A stretch of DNA of 64,000 nucleotides, from NCBI GenBank assembly GCA_017563185.1, contig JAFXIL010000195.1:16159-80158 (forward strand), in the 5' to 3' direction. Below, piece by piece: positions 9,460 through 49,699 of this stretch. This DNA is from Kiritimatiellia bacterium. Its GTDB lineage: Bacteria > Verrucomicrobiota > Kiritimatiellia > RFP12 > UBA1067. The translations under genes and the position numbers were made by a program. Below the pieces are notes generated by a model. The model searched no databases. It had not been told where the DNA came from and saw nothing but the letters and a program-made list of their open reading frames with translations. Position 1 is the first letter of the stretch. Each line of letters opens with the position of its first letter.

Positions 9460-9468
9460 TGCTATAAT
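9460..9468 (+). promoter_or_regulatory. extended -10 element TGcTATAAT, 7 nt upstream of the sod ATG (leaderless-type arrangement)
   Basis: TGCTATAAT at 9460-9468; the ATG at 9476 follows a 7-nt spacer. The same architecture recurs at 24456 and 25628. Confidence 0.4.
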
Positions 9469-9475
9469 GTCTGCC

Positions 9476-10174
9476 ATGAAAACAGACATTACTAGACGAC
9501 GTTTTGCGGCAGGCGCGGCGTGCGCCGCTCTGGCCGCGTGCGCCGATGCCAAGAGAGGAAAGCCCGCCATGAAGGAGATAGCTCTTCCACCGCTGCCGTA
9601 TGCCGAAGACGCACTTGCGCCCGTCATCTCGGCAAAGACGATTTCCTACCACTACGGAAAGCACCATGCCGGGTACATAAAGGCACTGAATGGCCTTATA
9701 TCCGGAACTCATTATGAAACTCTGTCGCTCTCGGAGATGGTGGGGCTTTCGCGCGAGCTGAACGATCCCGGGATATTCAACAATGCAGCCCAGGCGTGGA
9801 ACCACGACTTCTACTGGCATTCGCTCGCCCCTGTGGGCAAGGGAGGCGAACCGTCGGCCGAACTGCTCAAGGCGATCAACGAGTCGTTCGGGTCGCTTGA
9901 CAATTGCAAGAAGGCGCTTTCCCAAGCCGCCACGAGGCAATTCGGAAGCGGCTGGGCGTGGCTCGTCGCAAAGGGCGGAAAACTCCTCGTGGAGAGTACA
10001 GGCAACGCCGACACGCCGTGCAGGCAGCAGTACGTGAAGCCGCTTCTCACCATCGACGTGTGGGAGCATGCCTACTATCTCGACTGGCAGAACAACCGCG
10101 CCGCATACGTCAAGGCGATTGTCGACGGTCACCTGGACTGGTCCGCCGCCTCCAGTCGCTTCGCGTCGGCCTGA
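9476..10174 (+). CDS. Fe/Mn-family superoxide dismutase with N-terminal export/lipoprotein-like signal
   Basis: SOD signatures are present: YHYGKHH and DVWEHAYYLDWQNNRAAYV. The N-terminus MKTDITRRRFAAGAACAALAACADAK has an RRRF TAT-like motif and a lipobox-like LAAC. An alternative start lies at 9467. Confidence 0.85.
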   Translation: MKTDITRRRFAAGAACAALAACADAKRGKPAMKEIALPPLPYAEDALAPVISAKTISYHYGKHHAGYIKALNGLISGTHYETLSLSEMVGLSRELNDPGIFNNAAQAWNHDFYWHSLAPVGKGGEPSAELLKAINESFGSLDNCKKALSQAATRQFGSGWAWLVAKGGKLLVESTGNADTPCRQQYVKPLLTIDVWEHAYYLDWQNNRAAYVKAIVDGHLDWSAASSRFASA

Positions 10175-10193
10175 GACGACTGGAGGTGTTCCA

Positions 10194-11165
10194 ATGGCAG
10201 CCGCCCATAATGAAGGCGCATCGCGCCGAAAGGCCGGATCTCTGGACCGGCGCTCGTTCGTTGGATCGCTCGCGGCGTTTGGCGCGGGACAGGTTGCGTT
10301 TGGCGCGACGAACTGCGTTGAGCAGACGTCTGCCGCGCCTAAGCCGAATAACAGGTTCTCGGCGTGGGACGAAGTGTCGCTTGGCGGCACGGGCATTCGC
10401 ACGTCGCGTCTTGGCTTCGGAACGGGCGTGAAGTCCGGCAACCGCTCCAGCGGGATGGTCCGCCGCAACGGACACGACGGCGCGGTGAAGCTGGTGCGCG
10501 CCGCATACGAGCGCGGGATAAGGTTCTTCGACACTGCCGACAGCTACGGCACCCACGCGGTGCTGCGCGAGGCGCTCTCTCCGTTTCCGCGTTCGTCCTA
10601 CGTAATCTGCACGAAGTACTGGTTCATGGGCGGCGGCATCCCGGAGGCCGACAAGTCCGACGTCGAGAGCTCCGTCAGCCGCTACCTTCGCGAGCTAGGA
10701 ACGGACTACATTGACATTTTGCAGCTGCATTGCGTGTTTCAGCCAGATTGGCCGACAAATCTCCAGAAGCACATGGAGGGGCTTGAGCGCTGCAAGAAGG
10801 CAGGAAAGATCCGCGCCCATGGCTGCTCGTTCCACGGCGCGAAGTCGCTTCCGCTCGCTGCCGACACGAAGTGGCTTGACGTGGCGCATGTGCAGATCAA
10901 CCCGTTTGGAAGCAAGATGGGACTCAAGCCAGACGAGGCGCTTGAGCAGGTACGGAGACTGCACGCCGCCGGGAAGGGCGTGATCGGGATGAAGGTGCTT
11001 GGCGAAGGGGCTATAGCCAAGGAAGGGCGCATGGACCAGTCGATTGCCTGGGTGCTGAAGAACAATGCTGCGGATGTGCTTGACATCGGTTTTCTCGACA
11101 TCGCCGAGATCGACGACATCGCCCGCCGTATCGCGGCGGTCGAGGGGACAGTCCCCAACACCTAG
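10194..11165 (+). CDS. aldo/keto reductase with twin-arginine signal peptide
   Basis: Internal start MAAAHNEG…SLDRRSFVGSLAAFGAG (TAT motif), with RBS ggaggtg upstream. The AKR fold is indicated by GxGxxxxG…RFFDTADSYG…ILQLHC…GVIGMKVLGEG. The last codons (…GTVPNT*) are themselves a copy of the downstream palindromic repeat. Confidence 0.8.
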   Translation: MAAAHNEGASRRKAGSLDRRSFVGSLAAFGAGQVAFGATNCVEQTSAAPKPNNRFSAWDEVSLGGTGIRTSRLGFGTGVKSGNRSSGMVRRNGHDGAVKLVRAAYERGIRFFDTADSYGTHAVLREALSPFPRSSYVICTKYWFMGGGIPEADKSDVESSVSRYLRELGTDYIDILQLHCVFQPDWPTNLQKHMEGLERCKKAGKIRAHGCSFHGAKSLPLAADTKWLDVAHVQINPFGSKMGLKPDEALEQVRRLHAAGKGVIGMKVLGEGAIAKEGRMDQSIAWVLKNNAADVLDIGFLDIAEIDDIARRIAAVEGTVPNT

Positions 11166-11399
11166 CGGGGACAGTCCCCAATGCTTCCAAGGGGGACAGT
11201 CCCCAATATCCAAGGGGGACAGTCCCCAATGCTTCCAAGGGGGACAGTCCCCAATGTTTGAAAAGGAGAACAGATGAGAACACCTAGCGGGGACAGTCCC
11301 CAATGCTTCAAGGTGACAGTCCCCAATATCCAAGGGTGACAGTCCCCAATGCTTCCAAGGGGGACAGTCCCCAATGTTTAGAAAAGGAGAACAGATGAA
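11142..11399 (+). repeat. tandem duplication (2 x ~122 bp) containing 9 copies of a ~24-bp sub-repeat with palindromic core GGGGACAGTCCCC
   Basis: The direct repeat unit aacacctagcggggacagtccccaatgcttccaag…aaaaggagaacagatga occurs twice (11156-11277 and 11278-11399). Each unit carries four GGGGACAGTCCCCAAT(A/G)(T/C)… sub-repeats at 23-25 bp spacing. A ninth copy lies within the last codons of the upstream reductase gene. Each 122-bp unit ends with RBS aaaaggagaacag plus ATG. Confidence 0.9.
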
Positions 11400-14300
11400 T
11401 GAAAAAAGCGGACGGGCCTGCGAAACGTTGGGTTGTCTTCGTTGGGCGCGGCTGTTGGCTCTTGTGGCGGGGATTGCCGCAGTTGGAGGCGTGAATGGTG
11501 CGGTGTCGTATATAGTTGATTCCGCCGAGGGGCCTGAGAAGGCGAAGTGGGCCGAAGACGTGCTTGAGTTCGCTGATCCGTTCATCGGCTCAGGCGGCAC
11601 GGGCCACACCACTCCGGCGGCCGCGTATCCGTTCGGCATGGTCCAGCCTGGCCCTGACACCAGCCACTCCGGCTGGGAACATTGCTCCGCCTACCAGTAC
11701 GGCGACAAGCGCATCAGGCGCTTCTCCCAGAACCATCTGAGCGGGACAGGCTGTTCTGAGTTCACCGACCTTGGATTCATGCCCTCGGCCGATGACCCTG
11801 ACGATGCGCTGAGGCGCGACTATTCTGCCGGTTTCGACAAGGCTACGGAAAATGCGTCGCCGGGATACTACACCGCCACGCTTGAATGCGGAACGAAGGT
11901 GGAGGCGACGTGCACGAGGCATGTGTCGCTCTTCCGCTTCACGTTTCCGAAGGGCAAGAAGGCGTCGCTCCTGTTCGATCCGTCGTGGTCGTTCTCCAGG
12001 ACAAAGTCCGCAGAAATCGCCACGATGAAGGATAGACGCGTCTCGGGACACGTCGACCGCCACGGCTGGCCGGGCCACGAGTACTGGTTCGCCTGGGAGG
12101 TGTCTGCCGAGCCCACGCGCGCGCGCGTCGTCAGAGAGGCCATGGCGGAGAAGGGCAGAGTGCCGATCTGCGCGTACGAATTCGATGCGGACAGGGACAA
12201 CGTCATCTACCTCAAGGTCGCGCTGTCGCGCACCTCCGCCAAGGGCGCGCGCCGCAACATCGACAAGGAGGTGCCGGACTGGGACTTCGACGGGGTGCTT
12301 GCCGCCAACCGCGCCGCCTGGCGCAGGATACTCGAGCGCGTAAAGGCGAAGGGCACCAGAGACCAGCTAAAGACACTCTATACTTCGCTCTACCACCTCT
12401 GCTTCCAGCCGAACACTATTTCAGACGTTGACGAACCCGACCTCTATTCCACCTTCTCGTGCTGGGATACGTATCGCGCGGCGGGTCCGCTCTACACCAT
12501 CCTCACTCCCGAATACGTGCCCGCGTTCATCAACTCGATGTTGTGGCACTTCGAGAAAAACGGCCACCTCCCCGTATGGACCCTCTGGGGCAAGGACAAC
12601 CAGTGCATGGTCGGCGTGCATTCAGTGCCCATGATTGTCGATGCGTACCTGAAGGGCTTCAAGGGCGTGGACTGGGAGCGGGCGTTCGACTGCGTGCGCA
12701 AGACGCTGAGGGAGAACCGCGGCAGATGGATTGCGCGATACGAGCTCCTCGACAAGTACGGCTACTATCCCTGCGACTTCATCAAGAACGAATCGGTGTC
12801 GTGGCTGCTCGAAAACTGCTACGACGATGCCTGCGCGTATCGTATGGCCAAGAAGCTCGGCGGCAGGAAAGAGGACGAGAAGTTCTTCCTTGAGCGTTCC
12901 CGCACCTGGACGAAGTGCTTCGACCCGAAGACCGGCTTCATACGCGCCCGCGACTCGAAGGGCAGATGGCGCGAACCTTTTGATCCCTACAGAATCCACG
13001 GCGAAGGCCATCACCACTACACGGAGGGCAACGCATTCCACTGGAACTGGCATGTCATGCAGGATCCTGACCTTCTCGTCAAACTGCTTGGCGGCAAGGA
13101 CGCCGCGCTCAAGAGGCTTTACGGACTCTTCAACGAAGACCCCAGCAAGCTTTCCGATGCGCCGCCGGATGTGACCGGTCTTATCGGGCAGTACTGCCAC
13201 GGCAACGAGCCTAGCCACCATAACATCTATTTCTTCTCTTTGCTCGGCAGGCGCGACCTCGCCGCCCAGTACATAAGGGAAGTGATGGATACGCAGTATC
13301 AGACCACTCCCACGGGCCTCTGCGGAAACGACGACTGCGGGCAGATGAGCGCGTGGTGCATATTCAGTACGCTGGGTTTCTATCCGTTCGACCCGTGCGG
13401 CGGCAAATACGTGCTTGGTGAAGCGCAGATGGAGGAGATATCCATCGACGTAGGCGGCGGCAAGCGGTTCCGGGTGTCGTCCGAACTGCCCGGCGAGGCT
13501 TCCAAGGCGGTTCAGTTCAACGGACGCAAGATGGACGGCGTCATGATCGCCCACGACGAGATAATGAAGGGCGGCACGCTCGACTTCGTTGGAGGCACCT
13601 CGAGGTTCGACTACGTCTTCGACACGACCGGCGCCCCGGAACTTGCCGCATGGACCAGGCAGAACCTTGCGCCGCTTATCCGCAAATGGTATCCGAAGCT
13701 GACCGAGATGTTCCCGTCGGAAGGCTGGAGCCCGAACAGGAAAGTCAGATTCCGCTTCAAGGAGAGAATCGGCTGCCCGGCGTATGCGGCTGGCAACTGC
13801 GTGACTTTGGACCGCGAGTGGATCAATAGCAACCCCACGGACGTCGGCTGCGCGATACACGAGCTTTTCCACATTGTCCAGGGCGGGTATCGCAAAGCTC
13901 CTGGCTGGCTTGCAGAAGGACTTGCCGACTACGTCAGGTTCTATCTCTATGAGCCTGAAGCGCATGGATGCGACTTGATTCTAGGCTCCTCCGAGGTACG
14001 CTACAACCAATCCTATCGCGTGTCCGCAAACTTCCTCAATTTTGTAGAAACGAAATACCCCGGCGTCGTGAAGGAGCTGAACGCGCTCTGCCGTCAGGGC
14101 AAATATGAAGAAGAGACCTACTGGAAGAAGCGCACCGGCAAGACGGTCAAAGAAATCGAGAGGGAATGGAAGTCCCTAGGGGATATGCCGTTCAGGTACT
14201 ACCGCTTCTGCGTTGACCGCACGAAGCGCCCGGCCGACTGCATGCAGCTTTCCGAAATCGAGCTGATCGATTCAAAGGGCAAGGTGATTCCCGCCGGGAG

Positions 14301-14658
14301 ATTCGAGCTTGGCTTCAACGGTAGCGGCGGCAGAAAGTTCGGAAATGGCGAAACGCCTGACCGGGCCATTGACGGCGACGTCGAAACCAAGTGGCTGGAT
14401 TTCAGGGCCGAGCACAATGCCAAGCCCTCGCTTCGCGCCGCCGTTTGGCTGCAGTTCAAGTTCGCCTCGCCGACTGAGCTCTCCGGCTACAGGTGGTACA
14501 CGGCGAACGACTTTGAAGACCGAGATCCCGGCGCCTGGCGCCTCCTCGGATCCAACGACGGCGCCAACTGGGTCATGATCGACCAGGTCACCGGCTTTCG
14601 CGCCACTTCAGAGCGCAACAAACTCGCCTTCTCCCGGCGCCTGCCAGAAGTGAAGTAG
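11395..14658 (+). CDS. secreted GH92-family alpha-mannosidase fused to an HExxH (BSP-like zincin) domain and a C-terminal F5/8-type discoidin (CBM32-like) domain
   Basis: A signal peptide follows M at 11395 (…LLALVAGIAAVGGVNGA). The GH92 N-terminal signature is GSGGTGHTTPAAAYPFGMVQPGPDT, and the GH92 body runs to about aa 740. Residues 745-930 contain GCAIHELFHIVQG (HExxH). Residues 940-1087 are F5/8-C-like (…DGDVETKWLDFRAEH…WRLLGSNDGANWVMI). An ATG at 11374 inside the repeat is an unlikely start. Confidence 0.85.
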   Translation: MNEKSGRACETLGCLRWARLLALVAGIAAVGGVNGAVSYIVDSAEGPEKAKWAEDVLEFADPFIGSGGTGHTTPAAAYPFGMVQPGPDTSHSGWEHCSAYQYGDKRIRRFSQNHLSGTGCSEFTDLGFMPSADDPDDALRRDYSAGFDKATENASPGYYTATLECGTKVEATCTRHVSLFRFTFPKGKKASLLFDPSWSFSRTKSAEIATMKDRRVSGHVDRHGWPGHEYWFAWEVSAEPTRARVVREAMAEKGRVPICAYEFDADRDNVIYLKVALSRTSAKGARRNIDKEVPDWDFDGVLAANRAAWRRILERVKAKGTRDQLKTLYTSLYHLCFQPNTISDVDEPDLYSTFSCWDTYRAAGPLYTILTPEYVPAFINSMLWHFEKNGHLPVWTLWGKDNQCMVGVHSVPMIVDAYLKGFKGVDWERAFDCVRKTLRENRGRWIARYELLDKYGYYPCDFIKNESVSWLLENCYDDACAYRMAKKLGGRKEDEKFFLERSRTWTKCFDPKTGFIRARDSKGRWREPFDPYRIHGEGHHHYTEGNAFHWNWHVMQDPDLLVKLLGGKDAALKRLYGLFNEDPSKLSDAPPDVTGLIGQYCHGNEPSHHNIYFFSLLGRRDLAAQYIREVMDTQYQTTPTGLCGNDDCGQMSAWCIFSTLGFYPFDPCGGKYVLGEAQMEEISIDVGGGKRFRVSSELPGEASKAVQFNGRKMDGVMIAHDEIMKGGTLDFVGGTSRFDYVFDTTGAPELAAWTRQNLAPLIRKWYPKLTEMFPSEGWSPNRKVRFRFKERIGCPAYAAGNCVTLDREWINSNPTDVGCAIHELFHIVQGGYRKAPGWLAEGLADYVRFYLYEPEAHGCDLILGSSEVRYNQSYRVSANFLNFVETKYPGVVKELNALCRQGKYEEETYWKKRTGKTVKEIEREWKSLGDMPFRYYRFCVDRTKRPADCMQLSEIELIDSKGKVIPAGRFELGFNGSGGRKFGNGETPDRAIDGDVETKWLDFRAEHNAKPSLRAAVWLQFKFASPTELSGYRWYTANDFEDRDPGAWRLLGSNDGANWVMIDQVTGFRATSERNKLAFSRRLPEVK

Positions 14659-14742: not shown

Positions 14743-17037
14743 TTAGAAGCGGGCGAGATCGAGCATTGAGCCTGGGCCGAGCGCGCGAAGATAGATGAAG
14801 AAGTAGAAGCGGTTGTCGCATTCCTCCTTCGAGCCGTCCACGCGCGTGTACGAGGTCTCGTGTGCGAACTGGAAGCGGTAGCCGATGCAGTCCGTCATCA
14901 GGTCAAACCACGAGCCAACCTCGTCGAGGTCGTTGCGGCGGCAGTCGTAGCGGATGTACGGCGACCACGCGAACCAGTCGCACACGGTGTGCTCGAAGCC
15001 GAGCTGCACCACGTTTGAGTACTCGTAGTTCCATCTGTCGTAGAGGCTGGGAAGGTAGTTCCATATGCGGTGGTCGCGGCCGATGTAGCCGGCGTGCCAC
15101 GCGAAGACGTCGGTGAGGCGCTGGCGGAAGAAGACGTCGGCGTAGGCGGCCTTGGAGTTTTCGCAGTCGTATTCGGCGCGGGTGTAGAACGTGACGTCGC
15201 GGGTGGGCAGCCAGCGGATGCGCGTGCCGGGAACCGCCTGGCGGTGTCCGCTGCGGCTGTAGTTGGGGTCTTCGTCCGTGTCGGGGTAGCCGGCGAGAGG
15301 GCCGTCCTTGTATGGGGTCATGGTCTCGAAGGGGATGGCGGCATACACGTCCCAGTCCAGAATGGTTCGTAGAATGTTCTGCTCGTCCGTTCTCTGGAAG
15401 ACGTTGCGGATGCCGGGGCGCACGCCGTGCCAGCTGGTTGGAAGGCCGCGGCCCTCGAAGCCGAACTGGTCGAGCCAGTCGACGGAGCTGTCGTAGCTGT
15501 CGAAGACGTAGTGGCGCTTGCTACGGCCGGAGGAGAGCTGCGCGTTCTGGTAGGAGTAGTCGATGTACGGCTCGAAGGTGTGGCGCCACGAGTCGTTGAG
15601 CCAGCTGGTGGCGTGCGCGGAGAGGGTGAAGCCGAACTCGCAGATGTGGCGGAAGAGGGCGTCGCCGGAGGCCTTGAGGTATTCGGAGCTGCGCGAGCCG
15701 CTGTTGCTCCAGTAGGTGCCGCGGTAGCCGGCGCGCGGGTTGACGGCGAGCACGTCCCAGAGCTTGAAGGGGGCGGTCACGCGGTGCGCGGTGTCCATGC
15801 GAAAGGCCTGGTAGTCGGCGCCGCGTCCGCTCTCGCCGAGGTATGGAACGTAGCGGAACATCGGATCGTGCGAGCCGTAGCGGGCATAGTCGTGGTTGAG
15901 GTAGCCGGCGCGCGTCTGCGACTCGTAGTTGGCGGGGAGGTCCCAGATGGGCTGCGGGGCGATGTTGGCCCAGCCTTCCGGGAGGCGGGAGGTGCCGCCG
16001 TAGAAGTCGTTGATGGGACCGGATACGCTGCCGCCAACGGCCCATGAGAGCCAACGGTGTTCGTACCATGCTTCATTGGAGGGGAGGGACTCGAGGCGGT
16101 GGTCCTTGTCGAAGAAGTCGCGGTTCATGTGCGAGTCGCTGAAGTAGGTGGCATGCACTCGCAGGTCGTCGTTGGGCGAGAGTTCAGCGCTGTGGTCCAG
16201 CACCACACGGTAGCGGTGGCGGTCCACGTCGCTGCCCCAGTTCTGGTAGTTGCGGTGGTGCCCGCTCCAGCGGCGGCCGGTGTAGCGGTCGTAGTCCTCG
16301 TCCCAGGCGTTGTAGCCGGAGATCTTGCCCTTGCCGAACTCCTGCAGATCCCAGCGCAGCGACTGCCCCACGGCGAAGCCGTTTTTCGTGCGGTAGTCGG
16401 CCGAGGTCGATGCGCCCAGCTTGTAGCCGCCGGGTGTGCCGTCGTCGTACAGGTTGTACACGTATTTGGTGAGCAGAAAGCCGCCCCAGCGCGAGCGGTA
16501 GCCGGGCATTGCGCGCAGGCCGTAGTCGGTGTTGAGCGGGTAGTACCACATGGGCACCCAGAGAACGGGCACGTCCATGTACCTTAGCCATGCGTTCTTG
16601 ACGAGCACGGCCTTGTCCTGGATGTATGTGAAGTCGCCGCGGAGGTCCCAGTGAAGATGGTCCACATCGTTGGAGCATGTGGTGGCCTTGGCGGGATTGC
16701 CGAAGGAGTAGATGCCGTCCACGCTGCGAGAGACGCGCTCCGAGAAGAAGCGGTACGGCGCGGCAGTGGCTGTGACGGAGCCAGTGGCGAGCAGAGCCCC
16801 GTCCTTGAGTCCACCCTGCAGGTACTTGCCTGTCACCGTGAGCTCGCCCGCGATGCGCTGGCCCTTCGCCTTCTGTGGAAGGGGGGCTGGGGCGAGGAGG
16901 TCTAGGATGCTAGACTCGGGGGAGAGAATATCCAGCATGTTAGACTCGGCTGCGACAGCGCCGAGCGTGGCGAGCGAGGCAAGAAAGAGTAGTGTCTTTT
17001 TCATTGTATTTTGTTCGCTTTGCGGGCTGAGTGTCAT
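14743..17037 (-). CDS. lptD: LptD/OstA-like outer-membrane beta-barrel protein (LPS-assembly protein family, tentative)
   Basis: It has a signal peptide (MKKTLLFLASLATLGAVAAES), an N-terminal OstA-like beta-jellyroll region, and a very W/Y/G-rich C-terminal ~550 aa typical of large OM barrels. The start at 17037 overlaps the rng stop (ATGA); an alternative ATG is at 17004. The upstream 200 codons of the ORF-track entry are antisense/overlap artefact. Confidence 0.5.
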   Translation of the reverse strand: MTLSPQSEQNTMKKTLLFLASLATLGAVAAESNMLDILSPESSILDLLAPAPLPQKAKGQRIAGELTVTGKYLQGGLKDGALLATGSVTATAAPYRFFSERVSRSVDGIYSFGNPAKATTCSNDVDHLHWDLRGDFTYIQDKAVLVKNAWLRYMDVPVLWVPMWYYPLNTDYGLRAMPGYRSRWGGFLLTKYVYNLYDDGTPGGYKLGASTSADYRTKNGFAVGQSLRWDLQEFGKGKISGYNAWDEDYDRYTGRRWSGHHRNYQNWGSDVDRHRYRVVLDHSAELSPNDDLRVHATYFSDSHMNRDFFDKDHRLESLPSNEAWYEHRWLSWAVGGSVSGPINDFYGGTSRLPEGWANIAPQPIWDLPANYESQTRAGYLNHDYARYGSHDPMFRYVPYLGESGRGADYQAFRMDTAHRVTAPFKLWDVLAVNPRAGYRGTYWSNSGSRSSEYLKASGDALFRHICEFGFTLSAHATSWLNDSWRHTFEPYIDYSYQNAQLSSGRSKRHYVFDSYDSSVDWLDQFGFEGRGLPTSWHGVRPGIRNVFQRTDEQNILRTILDWDVYAAIPFETMTPYKDGPLAGYPDTDEDPNYSRSGHRQAVPGTRIRWLPTRDVTFYTRAEYDCENSKAAYADVFFRQRLTDVFAWHAGYIGRDHRIWNYLPSLYDRWNYEYSNVVQLGFEHTVCDWFAWSPYIRYDCRRNDLDEVGSWFDLMTDCIGYRFQFAHETSYTRVDGSKEECDNRFYFFIYLRALGPGSMLDLARF

Positions 17038-44459: not shown

Positions 44460-45811
<1,352 letters not shown>

Positions 45812-45840
45812 TTACTTCCTTGTTAGGTTCATTCCTATGA

Positions 45841-46272
45841 TCAAGTATCGTCGGTAGTCATCCACCCCGGCTTGATTTCCTCTGCCATTGCGCATACAAG
45901 TGCAGCTGGACCGTATCCGATTCTGTCGGCCGCTTTCATCGCCTCTAATGCCTTCATGGGGTCTTTCTTGCAACCTTGTCCCATGCCTAATCTGATTCCC
46001 TTTTCATAAAGCATTTTCCCATGGTTGTACATTCCCGTGTTTACATGATTCATCCTGCTTCCGCGGTTTTCAGCGTCCTTGATCACGTTACTTGTCGCCA
46101 TTGCAGAAAGAAAGATCATTGATACGGTGACAGAGAGCTGTAGCCTCCATGACAGGGCACGTATCACGCGAAGAAGTGCGCGCGAACAGTCGGAACCGCC
46201 GTACCAGTCGGCAGCGATCTTGTTCTTAAGCTCTTCGAGGATGGAGAATGGATATTTCACTGTTGTGCCCAC
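45841..46272 (-). CDS. small Sel1-like repeat protein (tentative; GTG start; low-GC segment)
   Basis: 143 aa. The C-terminal half (GMYNHGKMLYEKGIRLGMGQGCKKDPMKALEAMKAADRIGYGPAALVCAMAEE) fits a Sel1/TPR-like repeat. GC is about 50% against about 68% for the genome. It is tightly spaced between the lipoprotein gene and the RR gene. Confidence 0.4.
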   Translation of the reverse strand: MGTTVKYPFSILEELKNKIAADWYGGSDCSRALLRVIRALSWRLQLSVTVSMIFLSAMATSNVIKDAENRGSRMNHVNTGMYNHGKMLYEKGIRLGMGQGCKKDPMKALEAMKAADRIGYGPAALVCAMAEEIKPGWMTTDDT

Positions 46273-46280
46273 GGCATCTT

Positions 46281-47072
46281 TTAATGCCTTTCTTTCTTTG
46301 CTTGAGGTAAATCTTTTTCCATCTCGCTTGGCAGTTTGCCAAGTACAGACTTTACATGTGACACAATAGCGGCTCGTTGCTCTAGCGTAAGACGGTGGCT
46401 TATGGAATGATATATGTGGTTGATTCTGCGAAGCTGGCTGTCTTCTTCCAGGCCCATTTCCTTTTTGAAATGTTCAAGTCGTCTATATTGTGTTGACTGA
46501 CGTCTATCGTTCAGGTTTAATCCAGGCATTGCGCTATCTGCCGCAGTTGCAGCTTGTCGTTCTTTTAGTATTACGTCCAGTAGTATGTTCCACCCCTCTA
46601 TTTTTTCTGGATTACGGAAGAATATGGTGAGCGCAGCCCATTGGCTGATATTCCATTGGTTACGCAAACGAACCTCAAGTCGATTATGTTCCTTTTCCTC
46701 TCCTTGAGCGTCATGTTCAATGTCGAAAGAAATATTCGTAGCGGCTTTAACGTAAATGCCGCTCAGAATTTCATAGAGGTTGGTCTGGGAATCTGCCGTA
46801 GCTTCCTTGCATAAATCATATGCTAGACTGTAGGAGTCGCATCCTCTAGCATCAAGCATTCCTGCTAGTTGCTGAACGCGAGTTTTAAATTTCTCTATGG
46901 CGTTACGCGAATCATCATTTTCTTCTTTTTGCGATGTAACTTGCTCGTGATGAGGCATTGCAACATTGCTCTTGATATCACTACGCTCTCTGCCGTCGCG
47001 ACATCCAACAACTACAGCAATCAGGCAGATGCTGAAGGATAGTGCCTTATCCCGTAATCCAAAGATGCTCAT
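46281..47072 (-). CDS. hypothetical lipoprotein (low-GC segment)
   Basis: The signal peptide carries a lipobox (MSIFGLRDKALSFSICLIAVVVGC). The 263-aa body is charged with no recognisable domain. Its ATG overlaps the stop of the upstream 876-aa gene (ATGA). Confidence 0.5.
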   Translation of the reverse strand: MSIFGLRDKALSFSICLIAVVVGCRDGRERSDIKSNVAMPHHEQVTSQKEENDDSRNAIEKFKTRVQQLAGMLDARGCDSYSLAYDLCKEATADSQTNLYEILSGIYVKAATNISFDIEHDAQGEEKEHNRLEVRLRNQWNISQWAALTIFFRNPEKIEGWNILLDVILKERQAATAADSAMPGLNLNDRRQSTQYRRLEHFKKEMGLEEDSQLRRINHIYHSISHRLTLEQRAAIVSHVKSVLGKLPSEMEKDLPQAKKERH

Positions 47073-49699
47073 TCTGGTAATCTCCCTGTTGTTATGATGG
47101 TGTTTGTACCGCGGATTACGTAATGTCCTGCCTTGATCACGCCAGCAGAGCCGTTTGGCAGAATTGTAAATTTCTGCTGCTCTGGAACTGCATTGGTTCG
47201 GGCTGGCATAGAGTCTCCGATCGTATTATGCTCATTCCACCCTAGTGGAATTGACCATATTATCACACCCTCCTGCCATCCGAACGAAACATCGTTTGTA
47301 AGTACGCCGTCGGGCGTCATTGGCTTAAGTATTCTGGAATTAGATGCTTCGTCCTCAAGCATGAAGAGATTGTCGTCACCTATGTTGAGCCACTCTCCGG
47401 CATGGTGGTCAGTTGTATGCGCCCATTCATCTGAGAATTCCTCGTTGCGAAAATATCCACTTACACCGCCTTCGGTGGTTGGTATCTCTTGCATGGCAAT
47501 GTTTCCGAAAGACACAGTGCGTGGGGCAATATACAGTTCTAGGAGCATACCTACGCCGCCAGCTTCGTTTTCGCCCAATCCAAAGTCAATTTTAGTTACT
47601 CGAGGACAATAGTATTTTCTCGGCTCTAGAATCATACAAGTAGTTTGGTAAGACTCATTGTTGACAGAAATTGTAAGAATACACTCGCCACCCTCTAAAG
47701 GAGCATGGAAGGAATGCGCGGTGTTCCTTAATGCAGAAATGGTCCCCTTGTTGACGTTCCAAGTGGCAGTCAATGATTTAGGCCAATGCCAGCAGGCAAC
47801 TTCTTCTTTTATCCCATAAATGTGCCTGCTCGTATTGCCGTCCAACGGCGCACTACGTATAGCCTCAAGTTGAACCTTGACTGTCGTTGCAGATGCCGAG
47901 TCTGACACAACTTCCAACAGAGACGGGGTGAATGCCGCGTTCACTATGATGTCGTCTGCTGCATCGCTGTGCCGTGCCGCTTCATAATCCACGGCAAACG
48001 ACATGCTACCTCCTGATGGAATCATTGCCATGTAGGGGAAGTGCAGATTGGCCCCGCCAGTTCGGACGAGTTGGTCAATATTCTGCGCTGTCAAGAGTAG
48101 CATGCCGCCGGTTTCTCCACCGTACACCGAGACTGAAAGAGTTGTGCTGGTGGATCGGCGCGCCACAACGTCATTCGGTGCATTCGTGTATGCGTCTTCA
48201 TAGAATACAACCGGCTTGTCAAAATCCACCGAGACGGACGCGGGCAGCTGCGGCATGCCTGGAAAGCCCGATCCAGCCGCAGCACATCCACACCACAACG
48301 ACGGTACGGCGAAAACCGCGCCTTCGAGCGTATATGTTCCGTCAATGGAAGTTCCGCCGCATTCGCAGTTGTCGCATCCCGTGAACCCAATCCAGTTGCC
48401 GCTGGCGACGTATGAACATGACGAGCCACCCGACAAAAGGCGGGGCCCGACACTGCCGCCAAATCCCGGCGTCCACGAGAATGCGCCGCCAGGATCGAAC
48501 GGCTGAACGCCGACGGCGTATCCGCCATCGTCAGGCGAGAGGTCGAACGAGAGCGGCCACTTGACTGTGAACGAGCGTCCGTCGTTGAGTCCATTTATGG
48601 TCACGACCGCGTTGCTGGGCGCTGACACGGAGAATGGCTCCGTGGATGTCACTATGTACTCAACGCCCATCAAAAGCGGAACATGGTTTGTCTCGCCGCC
48701 TCTGGCGATGACTATGGGCGAACCGAGATGAGATTCGCGGTCGGCGTTGAAGCAGATCGGCACAGGACCGCGATCCACCACGACGTCCACGAAGTAGTAG
48801 GCGTTCGTGTTCACAATGTCGGCGCATACGACATTGTACCATTCCTCGTTCGTCCCGTGCGCATCAGGTCCCGCAACGAGCGGCTCCGGGTCGAGGGTGT
48901 TTTCAAGGCCATCGTTGTCCCAGTCGAATGGAAACGCCGGTGCATATTCAACTGTCTGATTTTGATAGCGATACGCAAAGCGTCCGTCAGAGAAGAATTC
49001 CGCCTGGAAGTTGGTTATGCAGCTAACATCGCGGTTCACCGGCGAGTTCTCCCATGTGACGATCAGCGAGTTAGACGGCGATGTCGCATGCCAGAACACG
49101 TTTGAGACGCCGCCCGGCAGGAGATGCCAGTTGAACGCCGGCACCACGGCAAGCGGCGCTTCAAAAGGCGACGGAAAGTAGCATGTGCGCAGAGTCGGAC
49201 GAAACTCGCATTTGGAGAACACGGCCATTCCCTCGAGAAATCCCTCGCGCCATGGGAATGACCAGCCGACAGAAGGAATGCGCATCACATCTTCAAATCC
49301 GCCTCGCACGAGCCACGGCTCGTATGTCTGTGGCGTGCCGAAGGCATCACGCGCCACGATCTCACAACCCTCGCGCGTCTCAGCCACGCGCCAGCTGTTG
49401 GTAATGTCCGCGTCGGCAATTGGAAGCGCGATGTTCCCAGCATTGCGGTCACGCGGGACGCGTGACCCTACTGACCCTACCATGTTTGGCGGATCATTGG
49501 TGTACTTGGCGAAACCCTTGTACACTCCCGTTGCCGCCATCGCGCCCAGCAGCAGCGCCAAAACAAAGTTGTGCTCCTTCACAAGCCACGCAAGCGCATT
49601 GACGCGATTCCACACGAACCACGCCACAGCAACCGCAACACACACTCCCAGCAGTGCATGCAGTACATCTGGCGGCAAGGGATGGAGCATTTTGCACAT
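47069..49699 (-). CDS. large membrane-anchored protein of unknown function (two N-terminal TM helices; Cys/Gly-rich middle; compositionally distinct C-terminal third)
   Basis: 876 aa. TM1 is LHALLGVCVAVAVAWFVW and TM2 is FVLALLLGAMAATGVY. A DxDxDG-like acidic motif (FDWDNDGLENTLDPEP) is thrombospondin-type-3/calcium-binding-like. A Cys cluster (CSYVASGNWIGFTGCDNCECGG…CGCAAAG) follows. Codons about 1-530 are high-GC; the remaining ~340 codons are about 50% GC. The ATG at 49699 abuts the HK stop codon with a 0-nt spacer. Confidence 0.6.
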   Translation of the reverse strand: MCKMLHPLPPDVLHALLGVCVAVAVAWFVWNRVNALAWLVKEHNFVLALLLGAMAATGVYKGFAKYTNDPPNMVGSVGSRVPRDRNAGNIALPIADADITNSWRVAETREGCEIVARDAFGTPQTYEPWLVRGGFEDVMRIPSVGWSFPWREGFLEGMAVFSKCEFRPTLRTCYFPSPFEAPLAVVPAFNWHLLPGGVSNVFWHATSPSNSLIVTWENSPVNRDVSCITNFQAEFFSDGRFAYRYQNQTVEYAPAFPFDWDNDGLENTLDPEPLVAGPDAHGTNEEWYNVVCADIVNTNAYYFVDVVVDRGPVPICFNADRESHLGSPIVIARGGETNHVPLLMGVEYIVTSTEPFSVSAPSNAVVTINGLNDGRSFTVKWPLSFDLSPDDGGYAVGVQPFDPGGAFSWTPGFGGSVGPRLLSGGSSCSYVASGNWIGFTGCDNCECGGTSIDGTYTLEGAVFAVPSLWCGCAAAGSGFPGMPQLPASVSVDFDKPVVFYEDAYTNAPNDVVARRSTSTTLSVSVYGGETGGMLLLTAQNIDQLVRTGGANLHFPYMAMIPSGGSMSFAVDYEAARHSDAADDIIVNAAFTPSLLEVVSDSASATTVKVQLEAIRSAPLDGNTSRHIYGIKEEVACWHWPKSLTATWNVNKGTISALRNTAHSFHAPLEGGECILTISVNNESYQTTCMILEPRKYYCPRVTKIDFGLGENEAGGVGMLLELYIAPRTVSFGNIAMQEIPTTEGGVSGYFRNEEFSDEWAHTTDHHAGEWLNIGDDNLFMLEDEASNSRILKPMTPDGVLTNDVSFGWQEGVIIWSIPLGWNEHNTIGDSMPARTNAVPEQQKFTILPNGSAGVIKAGHYVIRGTNTIITTGRLPE

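Follow-up and report, generated by a model that had tools for sequence, protein, structure and literature searches.

Why would a bacterium join a mannosidase, a module of the plant PR17 family with a zinc-hydrolase motif, and a lectin-like domain in one exported polypeptide? The gene that raises this question lies in a 64,000-nucleotide stretch of DNA (hereafter the window) and falls within an open reading frame of the program-made list at 11374-14658 of the + strand. An AGGAG stands about 7 nt upstream of the ATG at 11395, and the ortholog from the closest genome (L013) has its ATG at the aligned position. Translation from 11395 gives 1087 amino acids, in agreement with a preliminary description of this DNA. 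The gene is real and intact, and it comes from a ruminant-gut Kiritimatiellae bacterium. Four Pfam domains (GH92N, GH92, BSP and F5/8C) all score above cut-off with every catalytic signature intact, and the profile search bears out the three domain calls of that description (mannosidase, zincin-like domain, discoidin domain) as well as their boundaries. All three modules belong to known families. The features are as follows.

11144..11398, + strand: upstream repeat array adjoining the gene, nine copies of GGGGACAGTCCCCAAT.
11395..14658, + strand: whole gene, 1087-residue exported GH92N-GH92-BSP-F5/8C protein, stop codon 14656-14658 (ORF list, ribosome-binding site, ortholog start, Pfam, NCBIfam).
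11395..11499, + strand: signal-peptide-like leader, residues 1-35 (read from the sequence).
11500..11565, + strand: vestigial start of a BSP module, residues 36-57, AVSYIVDSAEGPEKAKWAEDVL (BSP profile match).
11575..12228, + strand: GH92 N-terminal beta-sandwich domain, residues 61-278 (PF17678, alignment with 7ZGM).
12244..13590, + strand: GH92 catalytic (alpha/alpha)6 domain, residues 284-732 (PF07971).
13024-13026, + strand: codon of the GH92 general acid E544, in the motif YTEGNA, aligned with Bt3990 E533.
13333-13335, + strand: codon of the GH92 general base D647, in CGNDDCGQMSAW, aligned with Bt3990 D644.
13591..14187, + strand: BSP / PR17-type gluzincin module, residues 733-931 (PF04450, invariant motif, AlphaFold model, Foldseek).
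13858-13872, + strand: HELFH, residues 822-826, the sole HExxH in the whole protein.
13915-13917, + strand: predicted third zinc ligand E841 (gluzincin signature), with D845 and R848 downstream.
14188..14655, + strand: F5/8 type C (CBM32-like) module, residues 932-1087 (PF00754, 7NSN alignment).

The protein is probably secreted, as had been proposed. Read directly, its first 35 residues comprise a charged n-region followed by the hydrophobic LLALVAGIAAVGGV; the leaders of all homologs compared are alike, and in the full-length model the leader has a pLDDT below 50. That model (pTM 0.79) predicts a compact assembly, and the junctions between modules measure 3-4 residues each.

The neighbours in the window encode IF-2, SOD, an aldo-keto reductase, an unknown exported protein, RNase E/G and PBP2. 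Neither SusC/SusD nor other CAZyme genes stand beside the gene in the window, so that the locus is not a Bacteroidota-type PUL. Gene context differs among relatives and shows no conservation. The housekeeping neighbours, with no polysaccharide-utilisation context in the window, were counted against the mannoprotein reading taken up below. The upstream repeat array includes a twice-repeated 120-bp unit by which the ribosome-binding site and start codon are duplicated. Neither the ortholog locus nor any of the 92 loci compared has this array. We regard it as adjacent to the gene only, with no established functional part in it.

What kind of mannosidase is this? Pfam places Glyco_hydro_92N (PF17678) at residues 61-278 (E 6.7e-54, 183.7 bits against a cut-off of 34.5) and Glyco_hydro_92 (PF07971) at residues 284-732 (E 7.4e-139, 464 bits against 24.6), while NCBIfam TIGR01180 scores 486 bits against 249.6. 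These family profiles and the two-domain layout place the protein in GH92. The best solved match is 7ZGM, B035DRAFT_03340 of Bacteroides massiliensis (572 bits, residues 55-730), and the next closest is BT3130 (6F8Z). The GH92N domain is alignable with 7ZGM residues 2-253, and the motifs TEGN, HGNEPSHH and GNDDCGQMSAW are shared with that enzyme; the first and last of these, in which E544 and D647 stand, are the same in the active enzymes 7ZGM and BT3130. In Bt3990 the corresponding E533 and D644 are the Bronsted acid and Bronsted base (PMC10167667). Where Bt3990 has a second carboxylate, D642, our protein aligns N645 and then D646; the GNDD motif in this form also occurs in the characterised, active 7ZGM, BT3130 and BT3965. 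At the +1 site of 7ZGM four of six residues are kept, namely H, E and both lid tryptophans (W198 and W225 by alignment), whereas S533 becomes G and Y72 becomes H. B035DRAFT_03340 is a plant complex N-glycan alpha-1,3-mannosidase that trims plant N-glycans even while they are protein-bound; its gene adjoins a PNGase gene and the enzyme works with that PNGase. These nearest characterised relatives suggest that the present enzyme may also be specific for alpha-1,3 linkages. The two proteins differ in build: B035DRAFT_03340 is a lipoprotein of about 710 aa that consists of GH92 alone and whose gene lies near SusC/D loci, whereas ours carries BSP and CBM32 modules and lies outside any PUL.

At the other end of the chain, F5_F8_type_C (PF00754) matches residues 984-1067 (E 1.1e-8, 35.7 bits against 28.2), and the module aligns with the N-terminal CBM32 of NnGH92 from Neobacillus novalis (7NSN; E 1.5e-11). 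By this alignment the putative sugar contacts E986, F1003, D1039 and R1043 correspond to NnGH92 E105, F122, D148 and R152, which contact mannoimidazole. The four positions are invariant in 28 modules (one being F or W), which is consistent with possible mannose binding; for NnGH92 itself, binding of mannosides could not be demonstrated. NnGH92, like our protein, is a multi-domain GH92 with CBM32, having five domains of which two are CBM32s. It is, however, an alpha-1,2 enzyme of another GH92 subfamily (201 bits) and has no zincin module; the word 'peptidase' is absent from the paper describing it. Of the multi-domain GH92 enzymes NnGH92 alone has been studied, and its accessory domains matter for structural integrity and not for substrate affinity.

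Is the region between these two parts a true module, or a linker in which HExxH occurs by chance? PF04450 matches residues 790-924 (E 4.5e-13, 49.9 bits against 23.8), restricted to profile positions 64-206 of 207, and the homologous modules all carry the PF04450 annotation. The module has the gluzincin signature HExxH-x14-E-x3-D. Across 35 BSP modules, whose identity to ours falls as low as 25%, eight residues do not vary: H822, E823, H826, W838, E841, G842, D845 and R848. Taking in about 70 other modules, the zinc ligands, the catalytic Glu and the ExxxD Asp remain invariant while the remainder diverges to 25% identity. The AlphaFold model of the module (pLDDT 88.5, pTM 0.86) has a predicted zincin, thermolysin-like fold. 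Its top Foldseek matches are M1 catalytic domains, with probability ~1 and TMq 0.5-0.64, the E-values being weak (~1e-2) despite the high probabilities. A search of the PDB with the sequence of the module matched no entry. The preliminary description had taken this region for a zincin, and so it is: eight residues invariant in 35 modules are not those of a linker with a chance HExxH.

A second, vestigial match to the BSP profile lies near the start of the chain. Residues 36-57 align in register with its positions 4-25 (E 1.2e-4), at a score reached by none of 1892 scored shuffles; this vestige is kept in the subclade of our protein only. Degenerate modules occur in a few homologs. The zinc site is degenerate in P0038 and P0039, which have the order F5/8C-BSP-GH92, and in the stand-alone P0142; some relatives of GH92-F5/8C build lack the BSP module through deletion (P0026). 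Catalysis is therefore dispensable in some lineages.

How does the module relate to proteins already described? The plant PR17 or basic secretory proteins (NtPRp27, NbPRp27, Hv-PR17) belong to the same Pfam family, PF04450, and like our module they are secreted, have the HExxH zinc motif and comprise about 200-230 aa. They are stand-alone apoplastic defence proteins, whereas ours is covalently built into a mannosidase. Peptidase activity has been demonstrated for no BSP/PR17 member, nor has a substrate ever been found. Neither casein nor gelatin was cut by Hv-PR17, and NbPRp27 exerts its effect on immunity without need of HExxH; both findings count against a peptidase reading. Binding of a peptidomimetic hydroxamate probe by NbPRp27, on the other hand, needs an intact HExxH.

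The best structural matches to the model are M1 aminopeptidases (APN, IRAP, ERAP2, LTA4 hydrolase and tricorn F3), which share with it HExxH followed by a WLxEG-type glutamate helix. Identity is 12-17%, and both the N-terminal beta domain and the C-terminal helical domain of M1 are lacking. The exopeptidase motif GxMEN is absent from the sequence of residues 733-931, which again counts against a peptidase. With only some 200 aa, no GxMEN and no sequence match to M1 structures, membership of M1 was rejected; judged from the model, the module has the fold of the same clan and stands outside the family. The M60-like mucinases (e.g. BT4244, 5KD5) combine a zincin with CBM32-type lectin modules and are aimed at glycoproteins. 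BT4244 is a weak Foldseek match (rank 34), and Pfam finds no PF13402 in our protein, so that M60-like glycopeptidase membership was also rejected. M60-like enzymes have O-glycosylated mucin targets and, unlike our protein, are unfused to mannan-pathway glycoside hydrolases. The resemblance is best taken as an analogy of design.

If the module is genuine, how often does it accompany mannan enzymes? BSP is present in 47 of the 120 nearest 90%-identity clusters, and nine of the best 80 BSP loci in reference genomes have all four domains of our protein. The architecture had been called uncommon. This holds for GH92 at large but not within ruminant-gut Kiritimatiellae, where the GH92-BSP combination is recurrent and conserved. 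The literature search yielded no paper linking GH92 with BSP, or BSP/PR17 with glycan degradation.

In proteins that join BSP to GH92, BSP stands at the C-terminal end, at the N-terminal end or internally; two deep BSP lineages each have such fusions, and domain order flips within each. A GH92-malectin-BSP protein occurs in a peat Verrucomicrobiota MAG. Close relatives of about 700 aa (P0044-P0049) consist of GH92 only. That BSP and GH92 came together repeatedly, in independent events, is a new observation made here. The association extends to other partners: in rumen bins a BSP-GH76-EEP gene directly follows a GH92 gene, in three loci of other Verrucomicrobiota (L048, L055, L060) the gene that comes next downstream of GH92 encodes an X-BSP protein, and GH125 (P0014) and GH97 (P0054) are further fused partners. 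The EEP partner is homologous to the mannosyl-6-phosphatase BT3783 (E 2e-38). A mannan-toolkit gene is fused or within 6 kb at 23 of the 80 reference BSP loci, against none for the GH43 control. Counting against the association, about 70% of the reference loci, especially those of Planctomycetota, have no mannan gene within 6 kb; nothing informative came from the surroundings of three stand-alone BSP genes. The fusion in the window is the commonest form of this wider pattern of BSP with alpha-mannan or N-glycan enzymes. The partner set is that of the yeast alpha-mannan loci of B. thetaiotaomicron (GH92, GH76, GH125, GH97 and the BT3783 phosphatase). In Bacteroides, however, each is encoded by its own gene within SusC/D loci and the described system has no zincin, whereas PVC bacteria combine such enzymes with BSP in multi-domain proteins.

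How might such a protein work? Its domain content and fold are established, as are the integrity of the catalytic signatures, the recurrence of the fusion and the fact that BSP came together with alpha-mannan or N-glycan enzymes repeatedly and independently. The reading we favour, with confidence about evenly balanced, is that of an exported protein with three activities aimed at alpha-mannosylated glycoproteins, BSP being a zinc hydrolase and probably a glycoprotein-directed peptidase beside the mannosidase. The CBM32-like F5/8C module would dock onto a mannose-type sugar, and GH92, presumably a Ca-dependent inverting exo-alpha-mannosidase, would take off terminal alpha-mannose. The zinc site of BSP, with H822, H826 and E841 as predicted ligands and E823 as general base, would then act hydrolytically on the protein moiety of that substrate, presumably cutting a peptide bond and thereby releasing or opening up glycopeptides. 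Likely targets are fungal or yeast mannoproteins and/or high-mannose or plant-type N-glycoproteins. The coordinated attack on N-glycoproteins first suggested for this gene is plausible, and the partner domains strengthen it, but GH76, Man-6-phosphatase and GH125 indicate fungal alpha-mannan or mannoproteins at least equally.

Could the zinc site be active on something other than a peptide backbone? It might cut the GlcNAc-Asn amide as a PNGase does, another amide, or an ester decoration, and BSP would thus supply a step that mannan or N-glycan systems otherwise take from separate enzymes. The nearest characterised GH92 is coupled to an adjacent PNGase, and the same GH92 subfamily here bears BSP instead; the plant member leaves general protease substrates uncut, and the partners of BSP are exclusively glycan-active enzymes. 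LTA4 hydrolase, among the fold matches, is a case of this fold doing non-peptidase chemistry. We nevertheless think this unlikely: rare exceptions aside, every characterised enzyme that has an HExxH...E gluzincin site is a peptidase, the probe bound by NbPRp27 is peptidomimetic, and sequence and structure searches revealed no likeness of BSP to a PNGase or deacetylase. That secreted proteases are common in gut bacteria, and that many BSP genes stand alone among unrelated neighbours, would suit an ordinary broad-specificity nutritional protease, fused by chance and uncoupled from the mannosidase substrate. The repeated, independent fusions and adjacencies specifically involve glycan-binding modules and the enzymes of alpha-mannan and N-glycans, and with casein and gelatin left intact by the plant member this becomes very unlikely.

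Alternatively, BSP may chiefly stabilise GH92 or hold the substrate protein, with catalysis secondary or absent. The persistence of degenerate modules, the structural role of the accessory domains of NnGH92, the very short linkers of a compact predicted assembly and the HExxH-independent immunity function of NbPRp27 all speak for this. Against it, zinc-site residues that stay invariant while the module diverges so far are the signature of selection on catalysis, and GH92 folds without need of BSP, since GH92-only and BSP-deleted relatives exist. A mainly structural role is accordingly improbable in our judgement. It is scarcely conceivable that assembly or gene calling has joined separate genes: nothing was found to support such an artefact, GC3 is even along the whole ORF, and nine reference genomes, together with dozens of assemblies of independent origin (66-99% identity), carry the same four domains in one uninterrupted ORF.

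What would a glycoprotein-directed peptidase mean beyond this gene? PR17 was described in about 2000-2002, and its biochemical function has been unknown since. We suggest, tentatively and with more doubt than confidence, that BSP/PR17 proteins are enzymes of mannosylated glycoproteins, either glycopeptidases or hydrolases of the glycan-peptide linkage, and that gene fusions and operons in bacteria reveal the substrate class of PR17. If so, plant PR17 would defend against fungi by attacking cell-wall mannoproteins. The pattern of BSP partners makes the PR17 question in plant immunity testable on mannoproteins and glycopeptides. Compact single-chain enzymes of deglycosylation and proteolysis could also serve glycoprotein analysis. 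PVC bacteria, for their part, would on this view use BSP to strip protein from fungal mannan or N-glycoproteins; the pattern of partners suggests a missing protein-removing step in the utilisation of alpha-mannan and N-glycans by PVC bacteria of the gut.

What does the gene at 11395–14658 encode? Its open reading frame spans 11374–14658 on the forward strand of the window. An AGGAG lies about 7 nt upstream of the ATG at 11395, and this ATG matches the start of the ortholog in the nearest reference genome (locus L013), so the product has the 1087 residues counted in the preliminary description. The fusion proposed there, of GH92, an HExxH zincin-like domain and an F5/8C domain, is borne out by four Pfam domains, all above their gathering scores:

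Residues 61–278: Glyco_hydro_92N, E = 6.7e-54
Residues 284–732: Glyco_hydro_92, E = 7.4e-139
Residues 790–924: BSP (PF04450), E = 4.5e-13, 49.9 bits against a gathering score of 23.8
Residues 984–1067: F5_F8_type_C, E = 1.1e-8, 35.7 bits against a gathering score of 28.2

NCBIfam TIGR01180 also assigns the protein to GH92. The sole HExxH of the chain, HELFH, occupies residues 822–826, and the profile score confirms that this region belongs to the BSP family. That score and the invariance of the motif rule out a mere linker in which HExxH occurs by chance; an assembly artefact is ruled out by homologous clusters with the same fusion and by nine reference-genome loci with the same architecture.

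How common is the fusion? In a search with the whole protein, PF04450 was present in 47 of the 120 best 90%-identity clusters, the GH92 parts of which are at least 40%, and mostly at least 52%, identical to the query; it was found in none of the more distant GH92s among the matches listed. The architecture had been called uncommon. Across GH92 as a whole it is indeed rare, but within one subfamily, that of gut Kiritimatiellae, it is a stable feature. Some sources label such proteins just ‘GH92 family glycosyl hydrolase [Kiritimatiellae bacterium]’.

The genomes nearest to that of the query are ruminant-gut MAGs. The closest named one, ‘Kiritimatiellae bacterium RGIG4394, roe deer omasum’, is 98% identical over the GH92 part and 94% over BSP; others are RUG rumen bins and Kiritimatiellia from yak, sheep and goat. 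The gene stands alone. No SusC/D-type locus surrounds it, two other orthologous groups do not share its context, and none of these neighbourhoods shows a conserved operon. Its neighbours are housekeeping in kind (IF-2, superoxide dismutase, aldo-keto reductase, an unknown exported 733-aa protein, RNase E/G and PBP2), and a GH43 gene lies 11 kb away. The Fe/Mn superoxide dismutase (9467–10174) and the aldo-keto reductase (10068–11165), both upstream, begin with twin-arginine-like leaders (TRRRFAAGAA..., DRRSFVGSLAAFGAG), which suggests that they are exported redox enzymes. The gene directly downstream (14743–16944, reverse strand) encodes about 733 residues that begin like a signal peptide (MKKTLLFLASLATLGAVAAES) and lack any Pfam match; at the loci of the homolog P0018, an 830-aa gene likewise without annotation follows the ortholog.

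Between the aldo-keto reductase and GH92 genes, a synteny common to the window and L013, lies a repeat array (11144–11398). It contains nine copies of GGGGACAGTCCCCAAT, with the palindromic core GGGGAC-A-GTCCCC, at a spacing of 23–25 bp, where chance would give 0.03 copies. A 120-bp unit, repeated twice at 95% identity, duplicates the end of the aldo-keto reductase gene together with the ribosome-binding site and ATG of the GH92 gene. The same array occurs neither in the rest of the window nor in the 92 loci examined, and its absence from these and from the ortholog rules out a conserved regulatory element. At L013 the two genes are just some 14 nt apart, which argues that the array is a strain-specific insertion, one that lengthens the C-terminus of the aldo-keto reductase. 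The RNA of this region is predicted to fold well (z = -4.8).

Elsewhere in the window, 45800–48200 is a low-GC island (GC 0.44–0.49 against about 0.63 elsewhere) that may have been acquired horizontally. It has no Rfam match, and its two open reading frames have no Pfam or PADLOC match:

46281–47072, reverse strand: 263 aa
47069–49699, reverse strand: 876 aa

Is the GH92 module likely to be active? By alignment, with residue roles taken from PMC10167667, the Brønsted acid E533 of Bt3990 corresponds to E544 of the query (in TEGN) and the base D644 to D647 (in GNDDCGQMSAW). Where Bt3990 has D642, the query has Asn, as do the active enzymes 7ZGM, BT3130 and BT3965. With its catalytic residues in place, the module is almost certainly an active exo-α-mannosidase. 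The closest solved structure is 7ZGM (572 bits), followed by BT3130. 7ZGM is B035DRAFT_03340 of Bacteroides massiliensis, an α-1,3-mannosidase with room for the core xylose of plant complex N-glycans, and it attacks the glycan even when this is still attached to protein; its gene adjoins a PNGase gene, and the paper describing it gives BT3130 as an α-1,3 enzyme too. We compared six residues of the +1 site and lid of 7ZGM, using a SEQRES offset of 29 derived from alignments: H530, E532, W178 and W209 are kept in the query, while S533 is replaced by Gly and Y72 by His. From these nearest characterized relatives we infer α-1,3 specificity.

The BSP module was examined in homologous segments from 75 proteins, the 35 complete ones being aligned. 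Even with identity to the query dropping to 25%, G818, H822, E823, H826, W838, E841, G842, D845, R848, A878, F880, W910, T914 and W925 are invariant. The zinc site follows the pattern HExxH-x14-E-x3-D, the gluzincin arrangement, with two histidines and a glutamate as zinc ligands, the HExxH glutamate as general base and the aspartate of ExxxD as in thermolysin. A confident AlphaFold model built from the alignment (pLDDT 88.5, pTM 0.86) is made up of a small β-sheet with its backing helix, one helix with HExxH and one with the glutamate, and a C-terminal subdomain that is helical. No solved relative was found by sequence, with a single sequence or a profile (best E-values about 1). In a Foldseek search of the PDB, nearly all matches to the model were catalytic domains of M1 aminopeptidases (aminopeptidase N, IRAP, ERAP2, LTA4 hydrolase and tricorn F3), at a probability of about 1, TMq up to 0.64, 12–17% identity and weak E-values of about 1e-2. 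Membership of M1 itself is ruled out, as BSP has neither the GxMEN exopeptidase motif nor the flanking M1 domains. As modelled, BSP thus shares the clan fold of M1 but lies outside that family, and the middle module is a real gluzincin. The BSP family is of modest size, with 2742 representatives at the 50% clustering level (E <= 1e-3) among 1.84 billion proteins.

An alignment (E = 1.5e-11) relates the query F5/8C module to the CBM32 at the N-terminus of NnGH92, which contacts mannoimidazole through E105, F122, D148 and R152; even for NnGH92, binding in solution could not be demonstrated. These residues correspond to E986, F1003, D1039 and R1043 of the query. All four are invariant in 28 homologous F5/8C modules (F or W at one position), whether the module stands before or after BSP, and a mannose-type ligand is plausible. 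The junctions are only 3–4 residues long (GGTS between GH92 and BSP, G-D-M between BSP and F5/8C). In the model of all 1087 residues (pLDDT 81.5, pTM 0.79) BSP lies mostly at pLDDT 85–95, with F5/8C lower. Since GH92 makes up just some 63% of the chain, this pTM suggests that BSP is confidently placed against GH92. Directly after the predicted signal peptide, residues 36–57 (window 11500–11565) are what is left of the beginning of a BSP module: 22 residues that match profile positions 4–25 (E = 1.2e-4, a score reached by no shuffle). This remnant is kept only in the query's subclade and forms a short strand in the model. It suggests that the domain order shifted by duplication and deletion from an ancestor with signal peptide, BSP and GH92 in that order.

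With what else does BSP travel? Domain mapping revealed it C-terminal to GH92 (GH92-BSP-F5/8C, as in the query, and GH92-BSP) and before it (F5/8C-BSP-GH92, BSP-GH92 and EEP-BSP-GH92); one GH97-containing protein has BSP then GH92, and P0014 adds GH125 to the query type. In a neighbour-joining tree the BSP modules form two deep lineages, each GH92-fused and interleaved with stand-alone proteins. Domain position flips within both: P0029 is C-terminal inside the ‘N-terminal’ lineage, and P0051 and P0057 are N-terminal inside the ‘C-terminal’ one. The EEP domain of the fusions is homologous (E = 2e-38) to BT3783, a mannosyl-6-phosphatase that partners a GH92 on phosphorylated high-mannose glycans in Bacteroides yeast-mannan loci.

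One genome was scanned for each GTDB species, which yielded at least 564 BSP loci in Verrucomicrobiota, Planctomycetota and Kiritimatiellia, of which the best 80 were examined. Nine have the query architecture. In a peat-bog Verrucomicrobiota MAG (L043, 3103–6675) a single 1191-aa reading frame encodes GH92-malectin-BSP; its GH92, from a distant subfamily, shares just 34% identity with that of the query, and close by are a second GH92 and a homolog of GH125. At L048, L055 and L060 one or two GH92 genes stand immediately upstream of a 460–490-aa gene ending in BSP. Rumen Kiritimatiellae-type bins (L026–L032) carry an 839-aa BSP-GH76-EEP protein (L026:5935–8451), a zincin joined to a domain of the endo-α-1,6-mannanase family and to a phosphatase domain like BT3783; five bins (L026, L028–L030 and L032) have a GH92 gene upstream of it, directly so in L026, L028 and L032. 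Altogether a GH92, GH76, GH125 or EEP homolog is fused or within 6 kb at 23 of the 80 loci, against 0 for the GH43 control. In 81 other multi-domain representatives the recognizable partners are glycan-related: F5/8C (8), EEP (5), 3-keto-disaccharide hydrolase (3), and GH97, GH78, GH2, malectin and CHB_HEX_C (one each). GH76 is an endo-α-1,6-mannanase family and GH125 an exo-α-1,6-mannosidase family, so the partner set of BSP in these PVC bacteria matches the enzyme set of Bacteroides α-mannan loci. The coupling of BSP to α-mannoside enzymes has arisen repeatedly and independently. The strongest evidence that zincin and mannosidases share their substrates is this Rosetta-stone pattern.

BSP proteins of about 440–490 aa form a large class (L048, L055, L060 and many representatives); their N-terminal stretch of some 240–290 aa has no Pfam match, and several of their genes directly follow GH92 genes. 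Other proteins carry BSP in tandem, such as P0221 with four matched stretches and a thioredoxin-like domain.

Does the module cut peptide bonds? PF04450 is the plant PR17 family, for which the literature searched contains no demonstration of peptidase activity in any member. Hv-PR17 left casein and gelatin uncleaved; MEROPS does not classify NbPRp27 as a metalloprotease, and the contribution of this protein to immunity is independent of HExxH, by a mechanism given as unknown. Labelling of NbPRp27 by a hydroxamate photoaffinity probe requires H122, E123 and H126 to be intact, which makes NbPRp27 a metalloprotein whose zincin site is accessible. A few BSP modules have lost the zinc site (RExxR in P0038, no motif in P0039, HELMY with E-to-Q in the stand-alone P0142) and are degenerate, pseudo-enzyme forms. 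In GH92-F5/8C proteins such as P0026 just the last 20 or so BSP residues are left, which indicates that the module was secondarily deleted. About 70% of the best 80 reference loci have no mannan gene within 6 kb, and no GH92 was found near three stand-alone BSP genes (Roseibacillus, Chthoniobacterales and a third MAG), the neighbours of which include a 3-keto-disaccharide hydrolase, GH16, GH2 and a GxGYxYP+F5/8C protein.

Such degenerate modules, deletions and loci without mannan genes, together with the lack of a demonstrated peptidase, keep two other readings alive: that BSP is a structural or binding module, and that it cuts a non-peptide bond. Beside them stand the zinc site invariant in 35 aligned modules and the HExxH-dependent labelling of NbPRp27. 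We consider it probable that BSP is a catalytic partner coupled to α-mannoside degradation; for the fuller statement, in which this partner cleaves peptide bonds, we put the chances at about even.

We read the query as an exported tri-modular enzyme in which an exo-α-mannosidase and a PR17-type gluzincin, both active-looking, would be rigidly joined to a mannose-type CBM32. Its most likely role is the concerted breakdown of α-mannosylated glycoproteins in the ruminant gut, the zincin cleaving the protein moiety; candidate substrates would be fungal or yeast mannoproteins and high-mannose or plant N-glycoproteins. The literature searched, including that on Kiritimatiellae GH92 and mannan, does not tie BSP to GH92, mannan or glycan degradation, and the paper on NnGH92, the only multi-domain GH92 studied, mentions no peptidase. 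The main value of the architecture is that it offers a concrete, testable substrate hypothesis for the PR17/BSP family.
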